This document shows, piece by piece, positions 17,731 through 53,461 of a DNA stretch of 56,836 bases. Origin of the DNA: Minisyncoccia bacterium (GTDB taxonomy: Bacteria > Patescibacteriota > Minisyncoccia > Phycocordibacterales > UBA918); NCBI GenBank assembly GCA_964229335.1, contig CAXRCZ010000013.1, positions 1-56,836 on the forward strand, in the 5' to 3' direction. The position numbers and the translations under genes were made by a program. The notes below the pieces were generated by a model that saw only the letters and a list, made by a program, of their open reading frames with translations, did no database searches and was not told the origin of the DNA. Position 1 is the first letter of the stretch, and every line of letters starts with the position of its first letter.

Positions 17731-19251
17731 TCAGCTGCCGGCTTTTACGTTGTCTTCTTCAACTATCTCCCAATCAGACATGGTATCGGTGGTTCGATTT
17801 GCCAAGTATCTTTGGTGCGCATACCAGCAGAGTGGCACAAGAATGTAACTGGCTACTACCCACCAGACGGAAAATGCTGGTAGCGTAAGGGTGGCAAATG
17901 GTAGCGCAGCAAACCACGTCGCTATCGCGATGATATACAACAGCGATAACTGCGCTATCGCCCCAAATGTCGCCACGAGCCAAGGTATAGTCATGAATAC
18001 AATGGCACTTACAAAAGCTAAGAACATAGCTACCGGTACCATCGGTAGTACCAGCACGTTCACTAACACTGCTACTACCGATACTTGACCAATGTGATAT
18101 AGCAGCAAAGGTAAAACGGCGATTTGCGTAGCTAGCGTGGCGAAAAAGAATTCTCGGAAGTAGATGGTGCCTTGGCTGGTTTGGCTGAGCACCATCTCAA
18201 ATCGCGGCACGATGAGTACCAAGCCGAGCGTGGCCATAAAGGAGAGTTGAAAGCCAATGTCATAGATAAGTACATAAGGATTAACTACTACCATCAATAA
18301 CCCAGCCAAGAACAAAGCCCTGACCACATGATACGAACGAGAGAAAAGTTGCGAGAGTAATACCAGACTGGCCATGATACTAGCACGAACTACTGTCGCA
18401 GAAAGACCCACCAAGAGCGCAAAGCCCACAATCGCCACGAGACCAAAGATGATTCGACTGCGAAGTCCCAAAAAGAGACTAAGTATCGTCATAATAAAGG
18501 CTACGACCAACATCACGTTGTAGCCAGAGAGTACGACAATATGAGTCAGACCAGAAGCTTGAAAGGCGGTTTCTAATTGTTCACCGAGTGACTGTTTCAT
18601 CCCCAGCAACAAACCCTTGGCCAAGCCGCCCGATGGTTCTTGAAGACTGTTGTCGATACCGGTGACGAGCGACTGTTTGATAGTGAATAAAGTCGCTAAG
18701 ACTGGATTACCATTATCCCCGCTCAGTACTGCAATATCAGCGAATGACACTCGATGAGTCACTCCACGAGCCAGTAAATATCCTGGATAATCAAACGTAC
18801 GACCAAATTCGGTAGCAAATTCCTCCGGTCGCTCTATTACACCAGATACCAACAGCTCATCGCCGTACGATACGTCGCTATAGCGATCAATCGTGACTAG
18901 TATCAGTTCTTCACCATGTTCTATGTATAGATGGGTGGTGGTTTCGCGGCGATCTGGTTCTCGTACTACAGTTCCAGAAAAAACTACCTCTTGTCCTTCA
19001 ACTGAATCAAATTGCGATGTGGTGAATTGCTGACTATGCCAATCAGTTCGTGCCATCCCCAGAGCGGTAGCGAGAAGGAAACAACCAGCAACCAAAATCC
19101 ATTTAGTAGCTGGAGTGGTAGCGCTTCGATACGCCACCACGGCCACTACTACACCAAGCAATAATCCCCAACATATGACTGCCAGTGGTAGCGGTGTCAC
19201 TGTCTGCCACGCTACACCGACGGCAAAGGCTCCGATAAGCCAATAATACAT
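17731..19251 (-). CDS. comEC: ComEC/Rec2 DNA uptake channel (OB and competence domains)
   Basis: GLTHIVVLSGYNV, VVRASIM, GFQLSFMAT; start reassigned to MYYWLIG, 7 nt after TATACT. Confidence 0.93.
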   Translation of the reverse strand: MYYWLIGAFAVGVAWQTVTPLPLAVICWGLLLGVVVAVVAYRSATTPATKWILVAGCFLLATALGMARTDWHSQQFTTSQFDSVEGQEVVFSGTVVREPDRRETTTHLYIEHGEELILVTIDRYSDVSYGDELLVSGVIERPEEFATEFGRTFDYPGYLLARGVTHRVSFADIAVLSGDNGNPVLATLFTIKQSLVTGIDNSLQEPSGGLAKGLLLGMKQSLGEQLETAFQASGLTHIVVLSGYNVMLVVAFIMTILSLFLGLRSRIIFGLVAIVGFALLVGLSATVVRASIMASLVLLSQLFSRSYHVVRALFLAGLLMVVVNPYVLIYDIGFQLSFMATLGLVLIVPRFEMVLSQTSQGTIYFREFFFATLATQIAVLPLLLYHIGQVSVVAVLVNVLVLPMVPVAMFLAFVSAIVFMTIPWLVATFGAIAQLSLLYIIAIATWFAALPFATLTLPAFSVWWVVASYILVPLCWYAHQRYLANRTTDTMSDWEIVEEDNVKAGS

Positions 19252-47604: not shown

Positions 47605-48528
47605 TTAGAGCCAATCATTATGCTTAAAGTAGCGCACCACCGCTGCCACGACAGCCACAATCAGTCCGATGACTACCCAGAATGAGTACTGCCACTCTCC
47701 TCCCGGCAACGCTACGTTCATACCGTACAAAGAAGACACGATGGTCGGGATAGTCAGGAGAATAGTGAGGATTGTGAGGGTTTTAATGGTGCTGTTTAGG
47801 TTGTTGGCCAAGATAGCCTCAGTAGCAGAGCGAAGGTTTTGAATAGTTTTTAAAACTGCACGAGAAGAGTCGACTAGCTGATTGTTATCAATCACCAAGT
47901 CTTCCATTAATTCCACATCATCCTTGTACATTTGGAAATAATTACTCTTGGTGACTTGCTGCAAGGCCGTATTGGTCGGTAGCAACGCACCCACCATGTC
48001 ATTAAGTCGATGCTCATACGTCACGAAGCGCTCGATTTCTCGGTTACCAATCTTGCGTAGTTGTACCCTATCACGGTGCACATTACGACGTAGTGAAACG
48101 AGTTGCTTTTCAAATGATTCAGTAATTGATTGCATCATTTGGAGGAACAGTTTGGTCTTTTGAGTCGTGTGAATCACTTCTTTGCCGTCAATAAACTGCT
48201 TGAAGGCTGGCACTTCACGTTGTGCAATGGTCAGCAGGAACGTGTCGCCCATAACTAGCAATATAGGTGCAGTATCGGTGTCTTCTTTTTGGTCATGGAA
48301 TGGATACCGAGTAAAGAAGAAGGTTGAGCCTTGAGAGCGTTCGAGCCGTGGCACCTCAAAGAAGTCCATCGCGTCCTCGATAATAGCCTCATCAAGTGAT
48401 AGTCGCTCAAACAGAGCTTGCAACTCCTCTTCACTAGGCTTGACCACATGAATCCAGACACCAGACCGGAGCTCGTTAATCTCTTTTAGCTCCGTATCTT
48501 TCACGGTGCGGAAGTAGTAGGTAATCAT
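47605..48528 (-). CDS. corA: CorA-family Mg2+ transporter
   Basis: YGMNVALP signature and two C-terminal TM helices. Confidence 0.93.
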   Translation of the reverse strand: MITYYFRTVKDTELKEINELRSGVWIHVVKPSEEELQALFERLSLDEAIIEDAMDFFEVPRLERSQGSTFFFTRYPFHDQKEDTDTAPILLVMGDTFLLTIAQREVPAFKQFIDGKEVIHTTQKTKLFLQMMQSITESFEKQLVSLRRNVHRDRVQLRKIGNREIERFVTYEHRLNDMVGALLPTNTALQQVTKSNYFQMYKDDVELMEDLVIDNNQLVDSSRAVLKTIQNLRSATEAILANNLNSTIKTLTILTILLTIPTIVSSLYGMNVALPGGEWQYSFWVVIGLIVAVVAAVVRYFKHNDWL

Positions 48529-48638
48529 GGTGGAATTCTAGCACATTGATATGAGCAGCTCTCGCATTTTTTTGCGTAAGGTGTTATATTTTCCCCACTT
48601 TGATATACGCTCTGTATGTCGGAGTACAGAGTGTAGTA

Positions 48639-48709
48639 CGGGGTGTAGCATAATGGTAGTGTACGCGGTTTGGGACCGTGAGGCCAGGGTTCGATTCCCT
48701 GCTCCCCGA
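48639..48709 (+). tRNA. tRNA-Pro (UGG), no encoded CCA
   Basis: cggggtg/ctccccg, anticodon arm cgcgg-tttggga-ccgtg, ggttcgattcc. Confidence 0.95.
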
Positions 48710-48712
48710 CAA

Positions 48713-48914
48713 AAAGAAACCAGTCTAGTTTTTGCTAGGCTGGTTTCTTTTTGGAGTGAGAAAAAGCGCATTTCTGCGCTTTTGTCAGTGATCAAACAGC
48801 GGAGCGTTATGAAAAGCACATTTTTAATGCTTTGAATAGCGAGCTGCGTCCAGCTACACTCAAGAACGTTATGATTGACTTGTGATAGCGGGACGATTCC
48901 CTGCTCTCCGACAA
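48713..48914 (+). repeat. tRNA-3'-associated element ending in a direct copy of the tRNA-Pro 3' end
   Basis: 48894-48914 cgattccctgctctccgacaa matches 48692-48712 at 20/21; internal cggagcgttatg, tagcgag, gacttgtga shared with the tRNA-Arg element. Confidence 0.75.
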
Positions 48915-48957
48915 TGCAAAACGAGCGTCAGAATTACTCTGACGCTCGTTTTGTTTA

Positions 48958-49227
48958 TTAGGCTAAATCAGCTATGGCGTTGGCCAAATTGATGTCCTTT
49001 TTGGTTACTACCCCTCTTTTATCATGAGTGGTTGTGGTGATTTTTACTTGGTCATACTCGACGATAAATGTAGCGTGATGTTGCTGTTGATCACAAATTT
49101 CCATAGCCTCTCTAACAAATTTCTGTACTGCGCTGTAGTTATTAAATGAAATAATTGCAGTGAGACTATTGTCTGTATGTTCCCATCTAGGATGTTTTTT
49201 TAAGAATTGTTGTAGATTATCGTTCAT
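48958..49227 (-). CDS. Pterin-4-alpha-carbinolamine dehydratase-like protein
   Basis: QHHA, TTHD, VTKKDINLA. Confidence 0.85.
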   Translation of the reverse strand: MNDNLQQFLKKHPRWEHTDNSLTAIISFNNYSAVQKFVREAMEICDQQQHHATFIVEYDQVKITTTTHDKRGVVTKKDINLANAIADLA

Positions 49228-49270
49228 ATTGTTTCACGTGAAACCTAATGCTCTGTTTCACGTGGAATGC

Positions 49271-49693
49271 TTACAGTATAACATTTGGCAGGAAATTAAT
49301 CGTAGCGTACTTTTCATGTGGAACCACCCGAACTGCCGCTACATCTAGTTGCCATGGAGTATCTAAGGCATTTTCCTGTATATATAGATCAATCGTGCGA
49401 TGTAGTCGTTGTAGTTTGTTATGAGTCACATTCTCCTCCGGACGCCACTCGCTAGTATGTATGGCCTGCTGTAAATGAGTTTTTGTTTCGTATGAAACAG
49501 TTTTCACCTCAATAAAGTGGGTTATTTGCTCATTACCTAGCGTTTCCCGCGAAACAATATCGATTTCACCGCATTTTCGTAGATAATTTACTGTTATAAT
49601 GCGGTGACCTTGGCGCTCAAGCCAATTGGCGGCTATTTTTTCGCCGATGGCGCCAGTTTTATTGTTATTTCCTTGTTTTTGGGCTTGTTTCAT
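49271..49693 (-). CDS. yraN: YraN/UPF0102 PD-(D/E)xK nuclease-fold protein
   Basis: GAIGEKIA, NY, GEIDIV, FIEVK. Confidence 0.9.
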   Translation of the reverse strand: MKQAQKQGNNNKTGAIGEKIAANWLERQGHRIITVNYLRKCGEIDIVSRETLGNEQITHFIEVKTVSYETKTHLQQAIHTSEWRPEENVTHNKLQRLHRTIDLYIQENALDTPWQLDVAAVRVVPHEKYATINFLPNVIL

Positions 49694-49885
49694 ATGAAAT
49701 GTGTTCCACGTGAAACGTATAGTACGTTCTTTTTGCTTATTTAGAGTATAGCACGTGTCTTTTACTGTGATATAAAGCTATATTTAAAGGACATTTCACA
49801 ATTTTGTCCTTTATCCACTTGTCCCCAAGTTTTTCCACACGAAACAACCCCGCTCTTGCTAAGAGCGGGGTTGGGGAGGTGCGAA

Positions 49886-50362
49886 TCAAGCAGCTTGTCG
49901 TTGTTGTCGTAGAACCGGAATGAAGTGCTTATTTGCACAAACCCGTTCCGTCATAGGCAGCATATTCCTAGCCCAGTGACAGGCATGTTCTAGTGTCGGC
50001 ACACATGACGAGCCATTTCTGTTATCGATATATCTTGAACCCATGAAGAGAATGATTGGCATATCGTAACCCTTCATTATTTTGGGTCCTTGCCAGTGCA
50101 GAGGTAAATTATCACGATTGTGGCGAATTGCTTCGCGCACATGGACATCAAAGAGGGTAAAATAGCTGCAAGATTGCAGCAATTCGGCCAGTCGGCTGAG
50201 TTCGATGCAGAATTCTTCGTCCGGAAACAAGTCCCGATGAGACAGGAGTTCGGTTTCGGACAGATTGAGTCTACTCAACCTAGTTTCACATGAAAATGCA
50301 TGGTCGAGAGTATAGCCCTTGGCTTCCTCAAGGCCATCGCAACTAATAGAAATAATAGTCAT
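49886..50362 (-). CDS. Orphan 158-aa protein ending QAA
   Basis: SD-like aggaagg; terminator aaccccgctctt...aagagcggggtt. Confidence 0.7.
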   Translation of the reverse strand: MTIISISCDGLEEAKGYTLDHAFSCETRLSRLNLSETELLSHRDLFPDEEFCIELSRLAELLQSCSYFTLFDVHVREAIRHNRDNLPLHWQGPKIMKGYDMPIILFMGSRYIDNRNGSSCVPTLEHACHWARNMLPMTERVCANKHFIPVLRQQRQAA

Positions 50363-50585
50363 CGCTAACCTTCCTGAAAAAGAGCTTGTTTTATCCTGAA
50401 TGTAAAGACGCGGATATCTGAAAACTATTACACTTTGGTAGGTGTTTCCTGTGGAACGGGGTGAAATAGGCTTATTTTAGTGATTTTTGACGTTATAGGG
50501 TAGGATTGATGGCTTGTTTTATTGGGTAAGGAGAATCGGTCACCTTTGCAGCAATATGGTGGTCAGATGAGATGTATTTTGGCGC

Positions 50586-50748
50586 AGGTTACTAACCAAA
50601 ATAATCACTTCGTGAATATTTTGCTAAGTACCGTTCAACAGTCTCCCAGACTGTTTCACCCCCATTAGCCTATTTTCTCGCTAGGATTTGCGAGAAAATT
50701 ATGGCTCCGCTTCACAAATTGGCACGAAACTGAAGCAATTCAGTTTCT
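50586..50748 (-). repeat. tRNA-3'-associated structured element behind tRNA-Gly(GCC)
   Basis: gcggagc, tagcgag, ggggtg and an aacagtc-tggga-gactgtt hairpin in the same order as in the tRNA-Arg element. Confidence 0.65.
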
Positions 50749-50793
50749 AAAGTAAAAGCCGGATTATAATCCGGCTTTTACTTTACCTATTTG

Positions 50794-50864
50794 TGCGGCC
50801 AGGGAGAATCGAACTCCCGACTAATCCTTGGCAAGGACTCATTAGACCACTTAACCCTGGCCGC
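50794..50864 (-). tRNA. tRNA-Gly (GCC), no encoded CCA, G at position 8
   Basis: gcggcca/tggccgc, anticodon arm agtcc-ttgccaa-ggatt, gttcgattc. Confidence 0.92.
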
Positions 50865-50869
50865 CTATG

Positions 50870-51538
50870 CTATTTTGCTAGTTCTTTCTGCACGAGCTCA
50901 ATCCATTTTAAGAGCTTGCGCTTCAAAACTGTGCTGCCGATTATAGTATTTCCGACGCCATAGTGCAATCGGTTAGCTGACTTCTTGGTCTTCGTGAATT
51001 GGGTTTTATAGAACTGACTGTAACTAAGACCAGTAGTCTTCTTCCATTTCTCCAGACAGGGCGCTTCTTTTTGACCTTGATAGAGCAGTAACCAACAATG
51101 TATATCCCTTTTATCTACCCCTAAATACTCGGTTAAAAACTTGATGAAGATTTTATGGGTAACAATATCCTGGCTCGAGAGGCGGATTTGGTTGGCAGCA
51201 TTCAAGTCACCCTGAGTGAGATAAATCATTAGTCCAGCAATGAAGCGGGGTTTGCTTTTATAATGCTTGAACTCTGTAACAGCAGACCGCTCTGCTTCTT
51301 TATAACGATTGAGGCGTTCGCGGGTGCGAGTTTTACTCATCAGTTTTAGGCGTTTCGCATTATCTTGTCCGGCTCGTCGCTTATTTTGCTTCGTTACAGT
51401 CTCAGAAAAAGCTTTGTTTTTCAACCATTTTGAAGCGGTGGACTTAGATATATCGCACAACTTGGCAATCTCTTCTAGAGTAAAGCCGCGCTTGCGAAAC
51501 TGCACCGCTTGCTCGTATTTTTCCTGATTCCGAACCAT
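50870..51538 (-). CDS. HTH plus degenerate LAGLIDADG-like domain protein
   Basis: GFTLEEIAKLCDISKSTASKWL helix-turn-helix; IAGLMIYLTQGD, RLSSQD resemble a LAGLIDADG fold (by eye). Confidence 0.65.
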   Translation of the reverse strand: MVRNQEKYEQAVQFRKRGFTLEEIAKLCDISKSTASKWLKNKAFSETVTKQNKRRAGQDNAKRLKLMSKTRTRERLNRYKEAERSAVTEFKHYKSKPRFIAGLMIYLTQGDLNAANQIRLSSQDIVTHKIFIKFLTEYLGVDKRDIHCWLLLYQGQKEAPCLEKWKKTTGLSYSQFYKTQFTKTKKSANRLHYGVGNTIIGSTVLKRKLLKWIELVQKELAK

Positions 51539-51669
51539 ATTGTGTGTATATTATATACTAATTACATATGTTTATTTTTAGGAGTTGGGTACAGCGTAGT
51601 TGAGAAGTTGTTAGATACTTGTCTATTGGTTGCAATGGAGTATTTTTCAACGTATGATGCTGCCACCCT

Positions 51670-51741
51670 GCACCCATGGTGAAATGGATATCACAACTGA
51701 CTTCGGATCAGTCGTTCTGGGTTCGAGTCCTGGTGGGTGCA
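51670..51741 (+). tRNA. tRNA-Arg (UCG), no encoded CCA
   Basis: gcaccca/tgggtgc, anticodon arm actga-cttcgga-tcagt, ggttcgagtcc. Confidence 0.95.
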
Positions 51742-51790
51742 CAAATCGGCCGGCCCGAAAGTGAAAGCTTTCGGGCCGTTGCCGTTTGTA

Positions 51791-51925
51791 GCACCCGCCA
51801 GGACTCGAAAGACGGAAGCGGTATGCAAGACGAGCGTAGCGAGAGGTTGGAGGGGTTGGAATAATCTGGGAGATTATTCCAAGGGTCGCGAGCCAAATCT
51901 TTGATTTGGACTTGTGACCGAGTCC
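51791..51925 (+). repeat. tRNA-3'-associated element starting with an inverted copy of the tRNA-Arg 3' end
   Basis: 51791-51809 is the reverse complement of 51722-51740 (18/19); ends in cgagtcc, the tRNA T-arm sequence. Confidence 0.75.
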
Positions 51926-51988
51926 AACGCATAAAACGTAAAAGAAAACCGCCTTTAAAGACGTTTTTCTGCTAAAATACAGCAACGT

Positions 51989-53461
51989 ATGAAAATCACT
52001 CCAGTCAATATTCCGGACGAAGTAAAAGAGGTGGCGACAGAATTAGAAAATGCTGGTTTTGAAGCATATTTAGTTGGCGGCTGTGTACGCGACCTTCTTC
52101 GTGATGTGGACCCTAAAGACTGGGACCTAACAACTAATGCTTCACCAGAGGAAATTGCGAACTTGTTCCCAGAACACTACGCCAACAATGATTTTGGTAC
52201 TGTCGGGGTAAAAACTGGCTCTGAAGATGACCGATTGGCAATTGTAGAGGTTACTCCCTATCGCAGCGAGAGCGGCTACAGTGACCGTCGACGGCCAGAT
52301 ACAGTGACCTTTGGTGTTTCACTGGAAGAAGACCTGACTCGGCGTGATTTCACTATCAATGCGCTGGCATACAACCTGAAAAAACAAGAAATAATTGATA
52401 ATTTTGAGGGTATCAATGACCTAAAAGCTGGTCGTTTGCGCACCGTAGGTGATCCAAGCGAACGATTTGCCGAAGATGCGCTACGGATGATGCGAGCAGT
52501 GCGTTTAGCAACTGAAATGGGGTTTGTAATTGAACCTGCGACTATGCAAGCCATTAGTGACAACAATCAACTATTGCGTGAAATCTCGATGGAACGTATC
52601 GCGGCGGAATTTTTACGCATTCTAGCGGCTCCTCATGCCATGAACGGACTGATTTTCCTCCAAAAATTAGGTCTATTGCAACATTTCATCCCTGAATTAG
52701 AGGAAGGTATCGGCTGTGAGCAGGGAGGAGCACATGCGTTTGATGTATTTGAACATAATTTGCGCACTATGCAGGCCGCGGTAGACAAAGATTATGACTT
52801 GCATATGCGCCTCGCCGGGCTGTTTCATGATATTGGAAAACCACGTACGCGCAGAGAAGGGGGTAAGAACAAGCGCTACACCTTCTTTGGGCACGAGGTA
52901 GTGGGAGCGAAAATGACCAAGAAAATCCTCGGCCGTCTTAAAATTCCTCGTGAAACCAGCCAGACAGTGGTGGATTTGGTGCGTTGGCATATGTTTTTTG
53001 CTGATCCTGACGAAATCACACTCTCGGCAGTCCGTCGCACCATCACTAGAATCGGGGAAGACCATATAGAAGACCTGTTAAATCTACGTGTCTGCGACCG
53101 AATTGGTACTGGCCGGCCAAAAGAACAACCGTTCAGGTTTCGTAAGTACAAAGCGATGGTAGACCAAGCCCTGCGCGACCCTATTTCGGTAAAATTATTG
53201 AAAATAAACGGGGACCGTATCATGGAACTCAGTGAAGAGCCTCCGAGCAAGCGATTGGGCTTTGTTTTACACGCTCTATTGGAGGAAGCTTTGGAAGATG
53301 CGAGTAAAAATACCGTTGATTATATGGAAAAACGAGCCCTGGAACTTCTTAAGTTGCCTGATTCGGAACTAGAAACCCTGGCTGAAGCAGGGAAGAAAAA
53401 GCAGGCTGAGGAAGAGGCAGCGGCACTAAAAGATATTGCAAGAGAGCACCGCGTGGGGTAA
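51989..53461 (+). CDS. cca: CCA-adding tRNA nucleotidyltransferase with HD domain
   Basis: LVGGCVRD, DWD, RRDFTINA, EDALRMMRAVR, FHDIGK. Confidence 0.92.
   Translation: MKITPVNIPDEVKEVATELENAGFEAYLVGGCVRDLLRDVDPKDWDLTTNASPEEIANLFPEHYANNDFGTVGVKTGSEDDRLAIVEVTPYRSESGYSDRRRPDTVTFGVSLEEDLTRRDFTINALAYNLKKQEIIDNFEGINDLKAGRLRTVGDPSERFAEDALRMMRAVRLATEMGFVIEPATMQAISDNNQLLREISMERIAAEFLRILAAPHAMNGLIFLQKLGLLQHFIPELEEGIGCEQGGAHAFDVFEHNLRTMQAAVDKDYDLHMRLAGLFHDIGKPRTRREGGKNKRYTFFGHEVVGAKMTKKILGRLKIPRETSQTVVDLVRWHMFFADPDEITLSAVRRTITRIGEDHIEDLLNLRVCDRIGTGRPKEQPFRFRKYKAMVDQALRDPISVKLLKINGDRIMELSEEPPSKRLGFVLHALLEEALEDASKNTVDYMEKRALELLKLPDSELETLAEAGKKKQAEEEAAALKDIAREHRVG

Follow-up and report, generated by a model that had tools for sequence, protein, structure and literature searches.

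Short structured elements behind tRNA and protein-gene ends in Patescibacteria: a family of probably mobile DNA that likely brings its own gene ends

Mobile DNA may carry a piece of the gene it enters, as does e14 in icd, an element with a substitute protein-gene end, and may recombine as a folded single strand, which is the substrate in the integron attC cassettes and the attP(+) of the CTX phage. For the islands that split tRNA genes, the part of the published account used here describes a gene restored by the sequence of the element and a displaced fragment that marks the far end (PMC4383910); the insertion sequence IS608, in the portion of its description drawn on, selects its site through a 4-nt guide that pairs with it and that can be lengthened by engineering to 12-17 nt (PMC5934647). 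In the window analysed here, which is the whole 56,836-nt contig CAXRCZ010000013.1 (labelled C13) of a 741-kb, 98% complete genome of a Minisyncoccia bacterium, the genes of tRNA-Pro, tRNA-Gly and tRNA-Arg are each followed by a structured element. These three belong to an element family that is real, that is broader than tRNA genes and that is undescribed within the literature searched, the listings and abstract openings covered (subscription journals and supplements lay outside this coverage) holding no description of such elements. The best explanation of the whole, and in our estimate a probable one, is a tiny non-coding mobile element, the unit of which has its own gene end, folds as single-stranded DNA and uses an arm as guide. 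Other contigs of this genome are labelled C1, C4, C5, C6 and C7, and the loci of relatives bear L-numbers; tRNA genes of the window were called with ARAGORN and Rfam.

The initial annotation of the window had placed a hairpin and a related element behind each of the three tRNA genes, and this placement stands: a covariance model built from 41 cores of other genomes ranks the Arg, Gly and Pro elements as the top three matches of the 56.8-kb window (E of 6e-4, 8e-4 and 2e-3, respectively; the next match has 0.55). Compared in pairs, the sequences of the three cores are only weakly alike: a shuffle scored as high in 305 of 1000 cases for Pro-Gly, 8 of 1000 for Pro-Arg and 2 of 1000 for Gly-Arg, and a sequence-only profile missed the Pro core. 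In the model, 18 of the 26 pairs change on both sides and 98% of the cells pair, as against 27-41% with the partners slid, the invariant columns and counts being inflated by seeds that were picked by motif from related genomes. For each of the Arg and Pro copies of a gene end, the tail of its own tRNA is a better fit than any of the 35 others in the genome. In Rfam 15, only the four tRNAs of the window score above gathering, and at E up to 1 nothing near the cut-off covers a core.

Read along the sense strand, the layout begins with the gene end and a hairpin; the gene end then recurs as an inverted copy, into which a small hairpin is often set, and after it come a 3-nt linker, the core and a displaced direct copy of the gene end. 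In the type A core, which all three elements of the window have, a GGA/GA internal loop interrupts one helix, and the closing helix has GTGAC at its end; the type B core combines a long helix with a GTAC(A/T)G linker and, capped by a T(GTA)A loop, a 4-bp stem in which the pairing at each position is present in 195-196 of 201 matches. Behind tRNA-Arg(TCG) (51670..51742, + strand) stand a hairpin with an internal loop (51743..51790, from repeat search and fold), related to hairpins that follow Gly and Arg tRNAs in relatives; the proposed guide, an inverted copy of tRNA positions 54-72 at 51791..51809, which matches at 18 of 19 positions as had been reported; the core at 51811..51918 (model match 51870-51921), with BLAST matches to Asp, Ala, Arg-CCT and Ser elements; and the closing CGAGTCC at 51919..51925, already noticed and now seen as a short displaced T-loop copy from C56.

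The Pro element, also on the + strand, follows tRNA-Pro(TGG) (48639..48710), which from its T-loop to its 3' end is the upstream, functional target copy. Its parts are a terminator-like hairpin (48710..48753, inverted repeat I5), a small hairpin module at 48762..48783 within the inverted arm, a decayed inverted copy of the T-arm at approximately 48786..48796, which goes beyond the direct copy claimed at first, and the core at 48798..48893, with the helix P1 bearing the GGA/GA loop and the closing helix P2 (model match 48794-48897; predicted fold). The direct copy of the 3' end, from C56, is confirmed with 20 of 21 positions identical at 48894..48914, and beyond it lies a second terminator-like hairpin (48917..48953, inverted repeat I7), likely the earlier terminator. 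On the minus strand, tRNA-Gly(GCC) (50793..50864) is followed by a perfect terminator-like hairpin (50748..50785, from repeat search and terminator scan), a small hairpin module ahead of the arm (50726..50747), and the core at 50582..50711 (model match 50582-50715), which has a 51-nt exact match to an Arg-GCG element. This element had been thought to keep no clear copy of its tRNA, but short ones are present: an inverted copy of the last tRNA bases and trailer, of the 3'-end target class, at 50713..50723 (ATTTGTG at 50719-50713), and a displaced end copy at 50574..50581 (CAAAATA, from 50581, against CAAATAG), short and weak alone. A worn second right end, GGTGAC and then CGATTCTCC at 50530..50544 (T-loop copy at 50538), is the remnant of an older T-loop-class copy. 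No open reading frame fits between the gene-end copies of the window elements. As to the finer resemblances first listed, the TGGGA hairpin common to Arg (about 51856-51882) and Gly is present, but in the model alignments it is a separate small module inserted in the core, outside the consensus; 'tagcgag' stands at non-equivalent places in the three elements; and the terminator-like hairpins exist, but the terminator scan flagged neither the Pro nor the Arg one on the tRNA strand.

Within the genus, 53 of 61 genomes have the type A motif (223 matches against 4 in the control) and 58 of 61 have that of type B (513 against 2), with 0-48 type B matches per genome. With stricter filters, type A occurs in 5 of 150 other genomes of the phylum, in 5-8 copies each, and 23 of the 25 type A loci of these five distant genomes follow a tRNA; the type B pattern in the same 150 genomes is at chance level (8 single matches against 11 in the control). 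Among the 80 type B matches listed from a species collection, 61 have titles naming Patescibacteria, 15 no group and 4 other bacteria, and by its relatives and these record titles the family is placed in Patescibacteria. Two full type B cores are on a contig titled Acidimicrobiales (L117, L118), either misbinned Patescibacteria DNA or a transfer. Carriage by phages was considered and set aside: the 5 type B and 70 type A pattern matches in viral contigs are chance-like, with 0 of 5 and 0 of 57 distinct ones behind a tRNA. In this genome, 11 of the 15 model matches lie behind a tRNA at a distance of at most 250 nt, a zone that holds 0.7% of positions, which is a strong enrichment; two further matches follow ftsZ and rplE, and another two carry tRNA arms (Val across a contig break and Phe behind an insert).

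The comparison of orthologous loci, proposed along with the initial annotation, revealed both empty and filled sites. The orthologous Arg and Gly tRNAs of relatives have type A, type B, both, stacks or none detected ('none' being an upper bound on empty sites, as the classifier of orthologues missed the window's own Gly core), and the inverted arm at these tRNAs follows each host's own tRNA variant. The same cores in the same layout stand at the 3' ends of ftsZ, rplL, rplK and fusA, with roughly half of the loci filled (18 of 31 for ftsZ and 17 of 31 for rplL) according to a loose motif test that makes a few miscalls either way, and tandem stacks of cores are seen at orthologous tRNAs and protein-gene ends alike. 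Some type B copies have a first hairpin of their own; a clear duplication accompanies 8 of 59 of these, against 0 in controls, and 10 of 67 are nested inside the type A junction motif. The early suggestion of a non-autonomous element aimed at tRNA 3' ends is thus supported by the empty and filled sites, the differing core types, the stacks and nests and the tRNA enrichment, but has to be widened to protein-gene ends. The other early suggestion was a cis-acting RNA switch, the inverted arm of which sequesters the T-arm and controls tRNA maturation; it could draw on the predicted fold of tRNA-Arg with its element, where, with the arm paired to the T-arm and acceptor strand, no cloverleaf remains (-139.7 kcal/mol), a loss which we read, from this model, as a cost for the read-through RNA and not a function. 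Such a switch cannot account for the same cores behind protein genes, for orthologous tRNAs that often have no core or one of another type, or for the loops of DNA type described below, the arms decay, and stacks and nests would be senseless for it, which makes it the least probable of the explanations weighed and a most improbable one.

What moves can be judged from the two copies of the gene end. Among the 74 protein-gene loci examined, 19 were kept, in which the displaced copy starts at the right end of the core and remains at least 68% identical as far as the stop codon, the dropped ones being empty, truncated or more diverged. In these 19 full-length displaced copies, the codon differences are 52 synonymous and 7 non-synonymous, where random changes give 12 and 46 and at most 26 synonymous in 2000 trials; a looser count of 36 loci, with a trimming rule that favours synonymous differences, gave 108 and 17. 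The synonymous excess indicates that the displaced copy was a working allele and not a decaying duplicate. The inverted arm in protein genes matches the upstream allele at 45 sites, the displaced allele at 8 and neither at 7, and the corresponding counts for 59 tRNA loci are 43, 9 and 9; in the ftsZ of this genome all 3 differences are synonymous and it is the upstream allele that the arm matches. Where copies are stacked, the second arm agrees with the copy that it follows and ends in bases of the gene-body context (L536, L577, L174). Because there are two working alleles and the arm follows the upstream one, the unit likely comes with a gene end of its own and puts the resident one out of place, rather than copying both from the host, contrary to the initial idea of ends templated from the resident gene. 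That the mobile unit carries its own gene end is held with good confidence, and in the simplest reading this unit is the gene end, hairpin, arm and core, with the newest copy beside the gene, in the manner of the islands by which a split tRNA gene is made whole (PMC4383910). A small GIY-YIG gene with its own inverted repeats, inserted in the start of gap (C4:21030-21400) with a truncated start upstream and a synonymous-variant start downstream, follows the same allele-swap logic and is a different element.

The elements could also spread for the most part by natural transformation and ordinary homologous recombination, with a crossover in the upstream gene body, a join at the right end of the core, and an arm both made and kept matched by hairpin fold-back and template switching. 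This would account for the foreign alleles, for an arm that matches bases upstream of the junction and for the palindromes, almost perfect and with the stop codon at their centre, of some rplL and rplK copies; ComEC is present, in the window at 17815-18612, and no dedicated enzyme was found. Without a structure-specific enzyme, however, it leaves unexplained why the right junction is exact to the base at many unrelated targets and why the linker is fixed at 3 nt, as well as the conserved unpaired core motifs and the nesting of type B in the type A motif. As a full account it is considered unlikely, but it may hold for the left junction and so partly merges with the explanation preferred here, that of a guided mobile unit.

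The junctions of type A in tRNA genes lie at C56 in 54 of 85 loci and, as we read the alignments, at the acceptor end in 19, with 6 unassigned and 6 mis-anchored, and no common sequence was found among the junctions at C56, at the acceptor end and inside the four protein genes. The linker between the paired arm and the core is of 3 nt in 39 of 42 type B cases; in this test 4 of the 5 control matches are at 3 nt as well, the T-loop being common to tRNA loci that went unrecognised. In 27 of 29 cases from protein genes, the first two linker bases are complementary to the pair of host bases just ahead of the junction. In ftsZ, the two extra arm bases follow the variable third codon position of a Gly codon (chance match 0.29 each), with a match in 11 of 11 correctly anchored rows and, among the three mis-anchored ones, a match by eye in two and none in one. 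As the arm can pair with either copy of the gene end in one register, it would set both cut sites, and the constant register to the arm, together with the lack of a shared junction sequence, suggests a guide. Single-stranded DNA with the arm as guide is credited with slightly more than an even chance.

In the proposed course of events, the moving unit (gene end, hairpin, inverted copy of the gene end and conserved folded core) would insert into a matching gene, which the incoming end would make whole again while the resident one would be moved behind the core. The unit would fold as single-stranded DNA on the sense strand of the gene, and an enzyme acting in trans would bind the core and cut where the inverted arm pairs with the target strand, the cut point presumably lying two bases inside the core-side end of the arm; the arm would thereby be a programmable guide, in the manner of the site choice of IS608 by base pairing. 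Regeneration of the target site would let new copies stack beside the gene, and the likely route between strains would be the uptake of single-stranded DNA by the competence system.

Whether the core acts as DNA or RNA is approached from its folds and loops. With RNA and with DNA parameters alike, the more stable fold is that of the sense strand for all type A cores (135 of 135), and since the need to restore the gene forces this strand by selection, wobble pairs, among them the G-U wobbles first remarked on in the Arg closing helix, do not decide between the two. In 310 elements, C(GNA)G triloops number 52 on the sense and 8 on the antisense strand, UNCG loops 6 and 9, GNRA loops 47 and 29, and GA-flanked GNA mini-hairpins, with covarying stems, 48 and 0; the 169 T(GTA)A loops, which the search pattern itself dictates, were left out of this evidence. 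According to the part of the source consulted, GCGNAGC mini-hairpins melt at about 76 C as DNA and the RNA form of the related GCGAAAGC at 39 C, such GNA mini-hairpins being far stabler as DNA than as RNA (PMC13037366). Judged by their sequences, the loop motifs lean to folded single-stranded DNA over RNA. A core that is a catalytic or protein-bound RNA, with an RNA step (reverse splicing, a bridge- or TIGR-type guide, or reverse transcription) and the arm as RNA guide, would agree with cores that are always on the sense strand and fold better there with RNA parameters, and with the strong covariation. But the strand bias is the same with DNA parameters and forced by gene restoration, the loops are GNA triloops and not UNCG or GNRA loops, many cores lie behind terminator-like hairpins, no core has an Rfam match, and reverse transcriptase (PF00078), IS110 (PF02371) and Nop (PF01798) were not found in this 98% complete genome, so this RNA explanation is rated very unlikely.

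Several observations weigh against a guided mobile unit of folded DNA. Because the genomes counted are related, their counts lack independence. A guide is not always needed, for the type B copies that bring a first hairpin of their own lack an arm matched to the target and are nevertheless inserted, mostly after GGG (27 of 59). The two-base rule fits a homologous left crossover upstream of the junction equally well, the inverted arms are often worn or interrupted (81 positions where the arm alone differs), and the loop census is compatible with RNA. In the DNA contigs over 48000-53000 and an 18-kb ftsZ stretch, at a depth of about 10, no excision, circle or empty-site joint was seen; one DNA contig runs through the Pro element and shows no differences, but the best run, from which it comes, may represent the source sample itself. 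The mobilising enzyme was not found among 747 open reading frames near cores at 356 loci, where only a helix-turn-helix LAGLIDADG-like family and small GIY-YIG proteins recur across targets. Y1 transposases (PF01797) occur in 33 of the 61 genomes of the genus and in 1 of the 5 distant core-bearing genomes, and the LAGLIDADG-like protein was rejected as a general mobiliser, being present in 29 of the 150 phylum genomes and in only 1 of the 5 with type A cores.

The latter protein, of 222 residues, is encoded in the window at 50870-51538 on the minus strand and has an N-terminal helix-turn-helix, a long helix and a C-terminal LAGLIDADG-like domain. In VIA-align its best Z scores are 7.6 to an intein homing endonuclease and 6.3 to I-DmoI, below Z 8, by which the modelled likeness is suggestive, and Foldseek gave no match. 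Its homologues, many of them orthologues, end at most 50 nt upstream of a same-strand tRNA in 43 of 48 cases, with several kinds of tRNA and sometimes in tandem, and it looks like a separate gene family linked to tRNA 5' ends. None of the 30 examined Y1 loci carries an A or B motif within 1.5 kb, and the hairpins on either side of this genome's RAYT-like gene are different ones; a distantly related HUH enzyme that works in trans is a possible candidate.

A further rival explanation ascribes the integration of a small circle or a folded strand, as in attC or CTX, to an Xer-like tyrosine recombinase of the host, with the arm only rebuilding a double-stranded site and having no part in site choice. 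One Xer-like gene was found in this genome and at least one in each of the 5 distant core-bearing genomes, but tyrosine recombinases are in 14 of 14 control genomes too while type A is in 5 of the 150 phylum genomes, so that their presence is uninformative. The T-loop junction and the layout of restored gene and displaced fragment are those of the tyrosine-integrase islands in the portion of PMC4383910 used, but no binding-site consensus exists among the targets (T-loop, acceptor end, ftsZ, rplL, rplK and fusA), and no integrase stands beside the cores or among the protein clusters near the 356 core-bearing loci, as judged by sequence starts. The Xer explanation thus appears improbable. Two large serine recombinases are also present.

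Against the described systems, the family may now be placed. Integron attC and CTX units are alike in the folded strand, in new units that stack by a regenerated site and in occasional single-gene cargo; here there is no IntI or fixed attI- or dif-like site, and the arm is built from the host gene. With miniature transposable elements that bear inverted repeats (MITEs) the contrast is that the inverted pair is host-gene sequence changing with the target and the duplicate is a different allele, not a short fixed duplication. The islands and prophages of tRNA and tmRNA genes, as far as the Islander text used covers them (PMC4383910), share the split gene that is restored, the displaced fragment in direct orientation, the T-loop junctions and the tandem arrays, whereas the present elements are of about 150-200 nt, need neither integrase nor cargo, contain an internal inverted copy of the gene end and employ one core family for many unrelated targets. 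The IS200/IS605 family, in what the portion of PMC5934647 drawn on says of IS608, is alike in the strand-specific hairpins, the proposed site choice by pairing of element and target and the paired bases just outside the left junction; IS608 has in that text a fixed 4-nt guide, encodes TnpA and carries no target piece, whereas the arm here is of 8-20 nt and differs per target, the gene end is duplicated and the Y1 genes examined are not linked to cores. Nor is there the fixed tetra- or pentanucleotide target without duplication of IS200/IS605, the junction context varying with the target. The REP, REPIN and BIME repeats with TnpA-REP (RAYT), by the part of PMC6006769 used, are likewise multi-copy extragenic hairpins, modular, non-autonomous and likely single-stranded substrates; the type A consensus has no GTAG/GTGG-type foot, and target-specific arms and gene-end replacement are found here. 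The IS110 bridge RNA and TIGR-Tas systems share a variable target-matching stretch in a conserved fold, but here one contiguous arm replaces the two spacers with box C/D motifs described in the portion of PMC12045711 used, the copies are dispersed and not in an array by an effector gene, and no DEDD or Nop protein was found in this genome, which lacks, as to retroelements and group II introns, any detected reverse transcriptase. The family works like a tRNA-gene (tDNA) island in gene restoring and, as proposed, like IS608 in site choice, and fails defining features of islands, IS200/IS605, REP, MITE, bridge/TIGR systems and retroelements.

If the guide reading is true, nature already has what was engineered for IS608, a long and changeable pairing that sets the exact insertion site, in an element without coding sequence that keeps the target gene intact, and its enzyme would be a new programmable tool for single-strand DNA integration. 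The boldest form of this, a natural re-programmable DNA-guided insertion, with a protein-free folded single-stranded DNA core and a swappable guide of 8-20 nt for base-exact, gene-restoring insertion at any conserved gene end, a system that would be driven by a Patescibacteria enzyme and would swap essential-gene ends between lineages as it spreads, is put forward tentatively, at rather less than an even chance. In the cautious reading, this is an unrecognised abundant class of mobile DNA in streamlined bacteria, which makes the ends of tRNA, ftsZ, rplL, rplK and fusA genes mosaic and opens slots for cargo insertion behind tRNAs. The elements are liable to be misread as island att scars, pseudo-tRNAs or terminators, and the fixed register gives a directly testable cut site.

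Some further sites deserve mention. Type B copies with their own first hairpin also occur in gene starts and tRNA 5' ends, supplying a new start (in this genome C5:27700 and C7:55200; L083, L084, L122, L203, L204, L206 and L208), the genes being, as we take it from their motifs, msrA-, glycoside-hydrolase- and rnhB-like. At C6:42921-43254, an initiator-Met-like tRNA missed by ARAGORN is split by an intron-like insert, the motifs of which we assume to be of group I type (putative); two cores come after it, one of type A and one of type B, in opposite orientation. At C1:17557-17757, tRNA-Lys(TTT) is followed by a partial self-copy with the TGGGA hairpin module, a copy miscalled by ARAGORN as tRNA-Pro(GGG). 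On contig C7 (126.7 kb), which equals its own reverse complement, an assembly artefact that doubles gene counts and for which the contig was halved before counting, the tRNA-Gln element is followed, at 62400-63108 (minus strand), by a NUDIX-like gene and then a second displaced Gln end, as single-gene cargo. The window also has four to five palindrome copies of the TGTTTCACGTGAAA type at 49230-49717, presumably resembling parS sites, which suggests an origin region. Finally, tRNA-Arg(TCG) with its element (51670-51989) was compared with L002, L003, L008 and L012-L030; it faces the gene of the CCA-adding enzyme here and in a few relatives and faces away from it in most, which is a local inversion.

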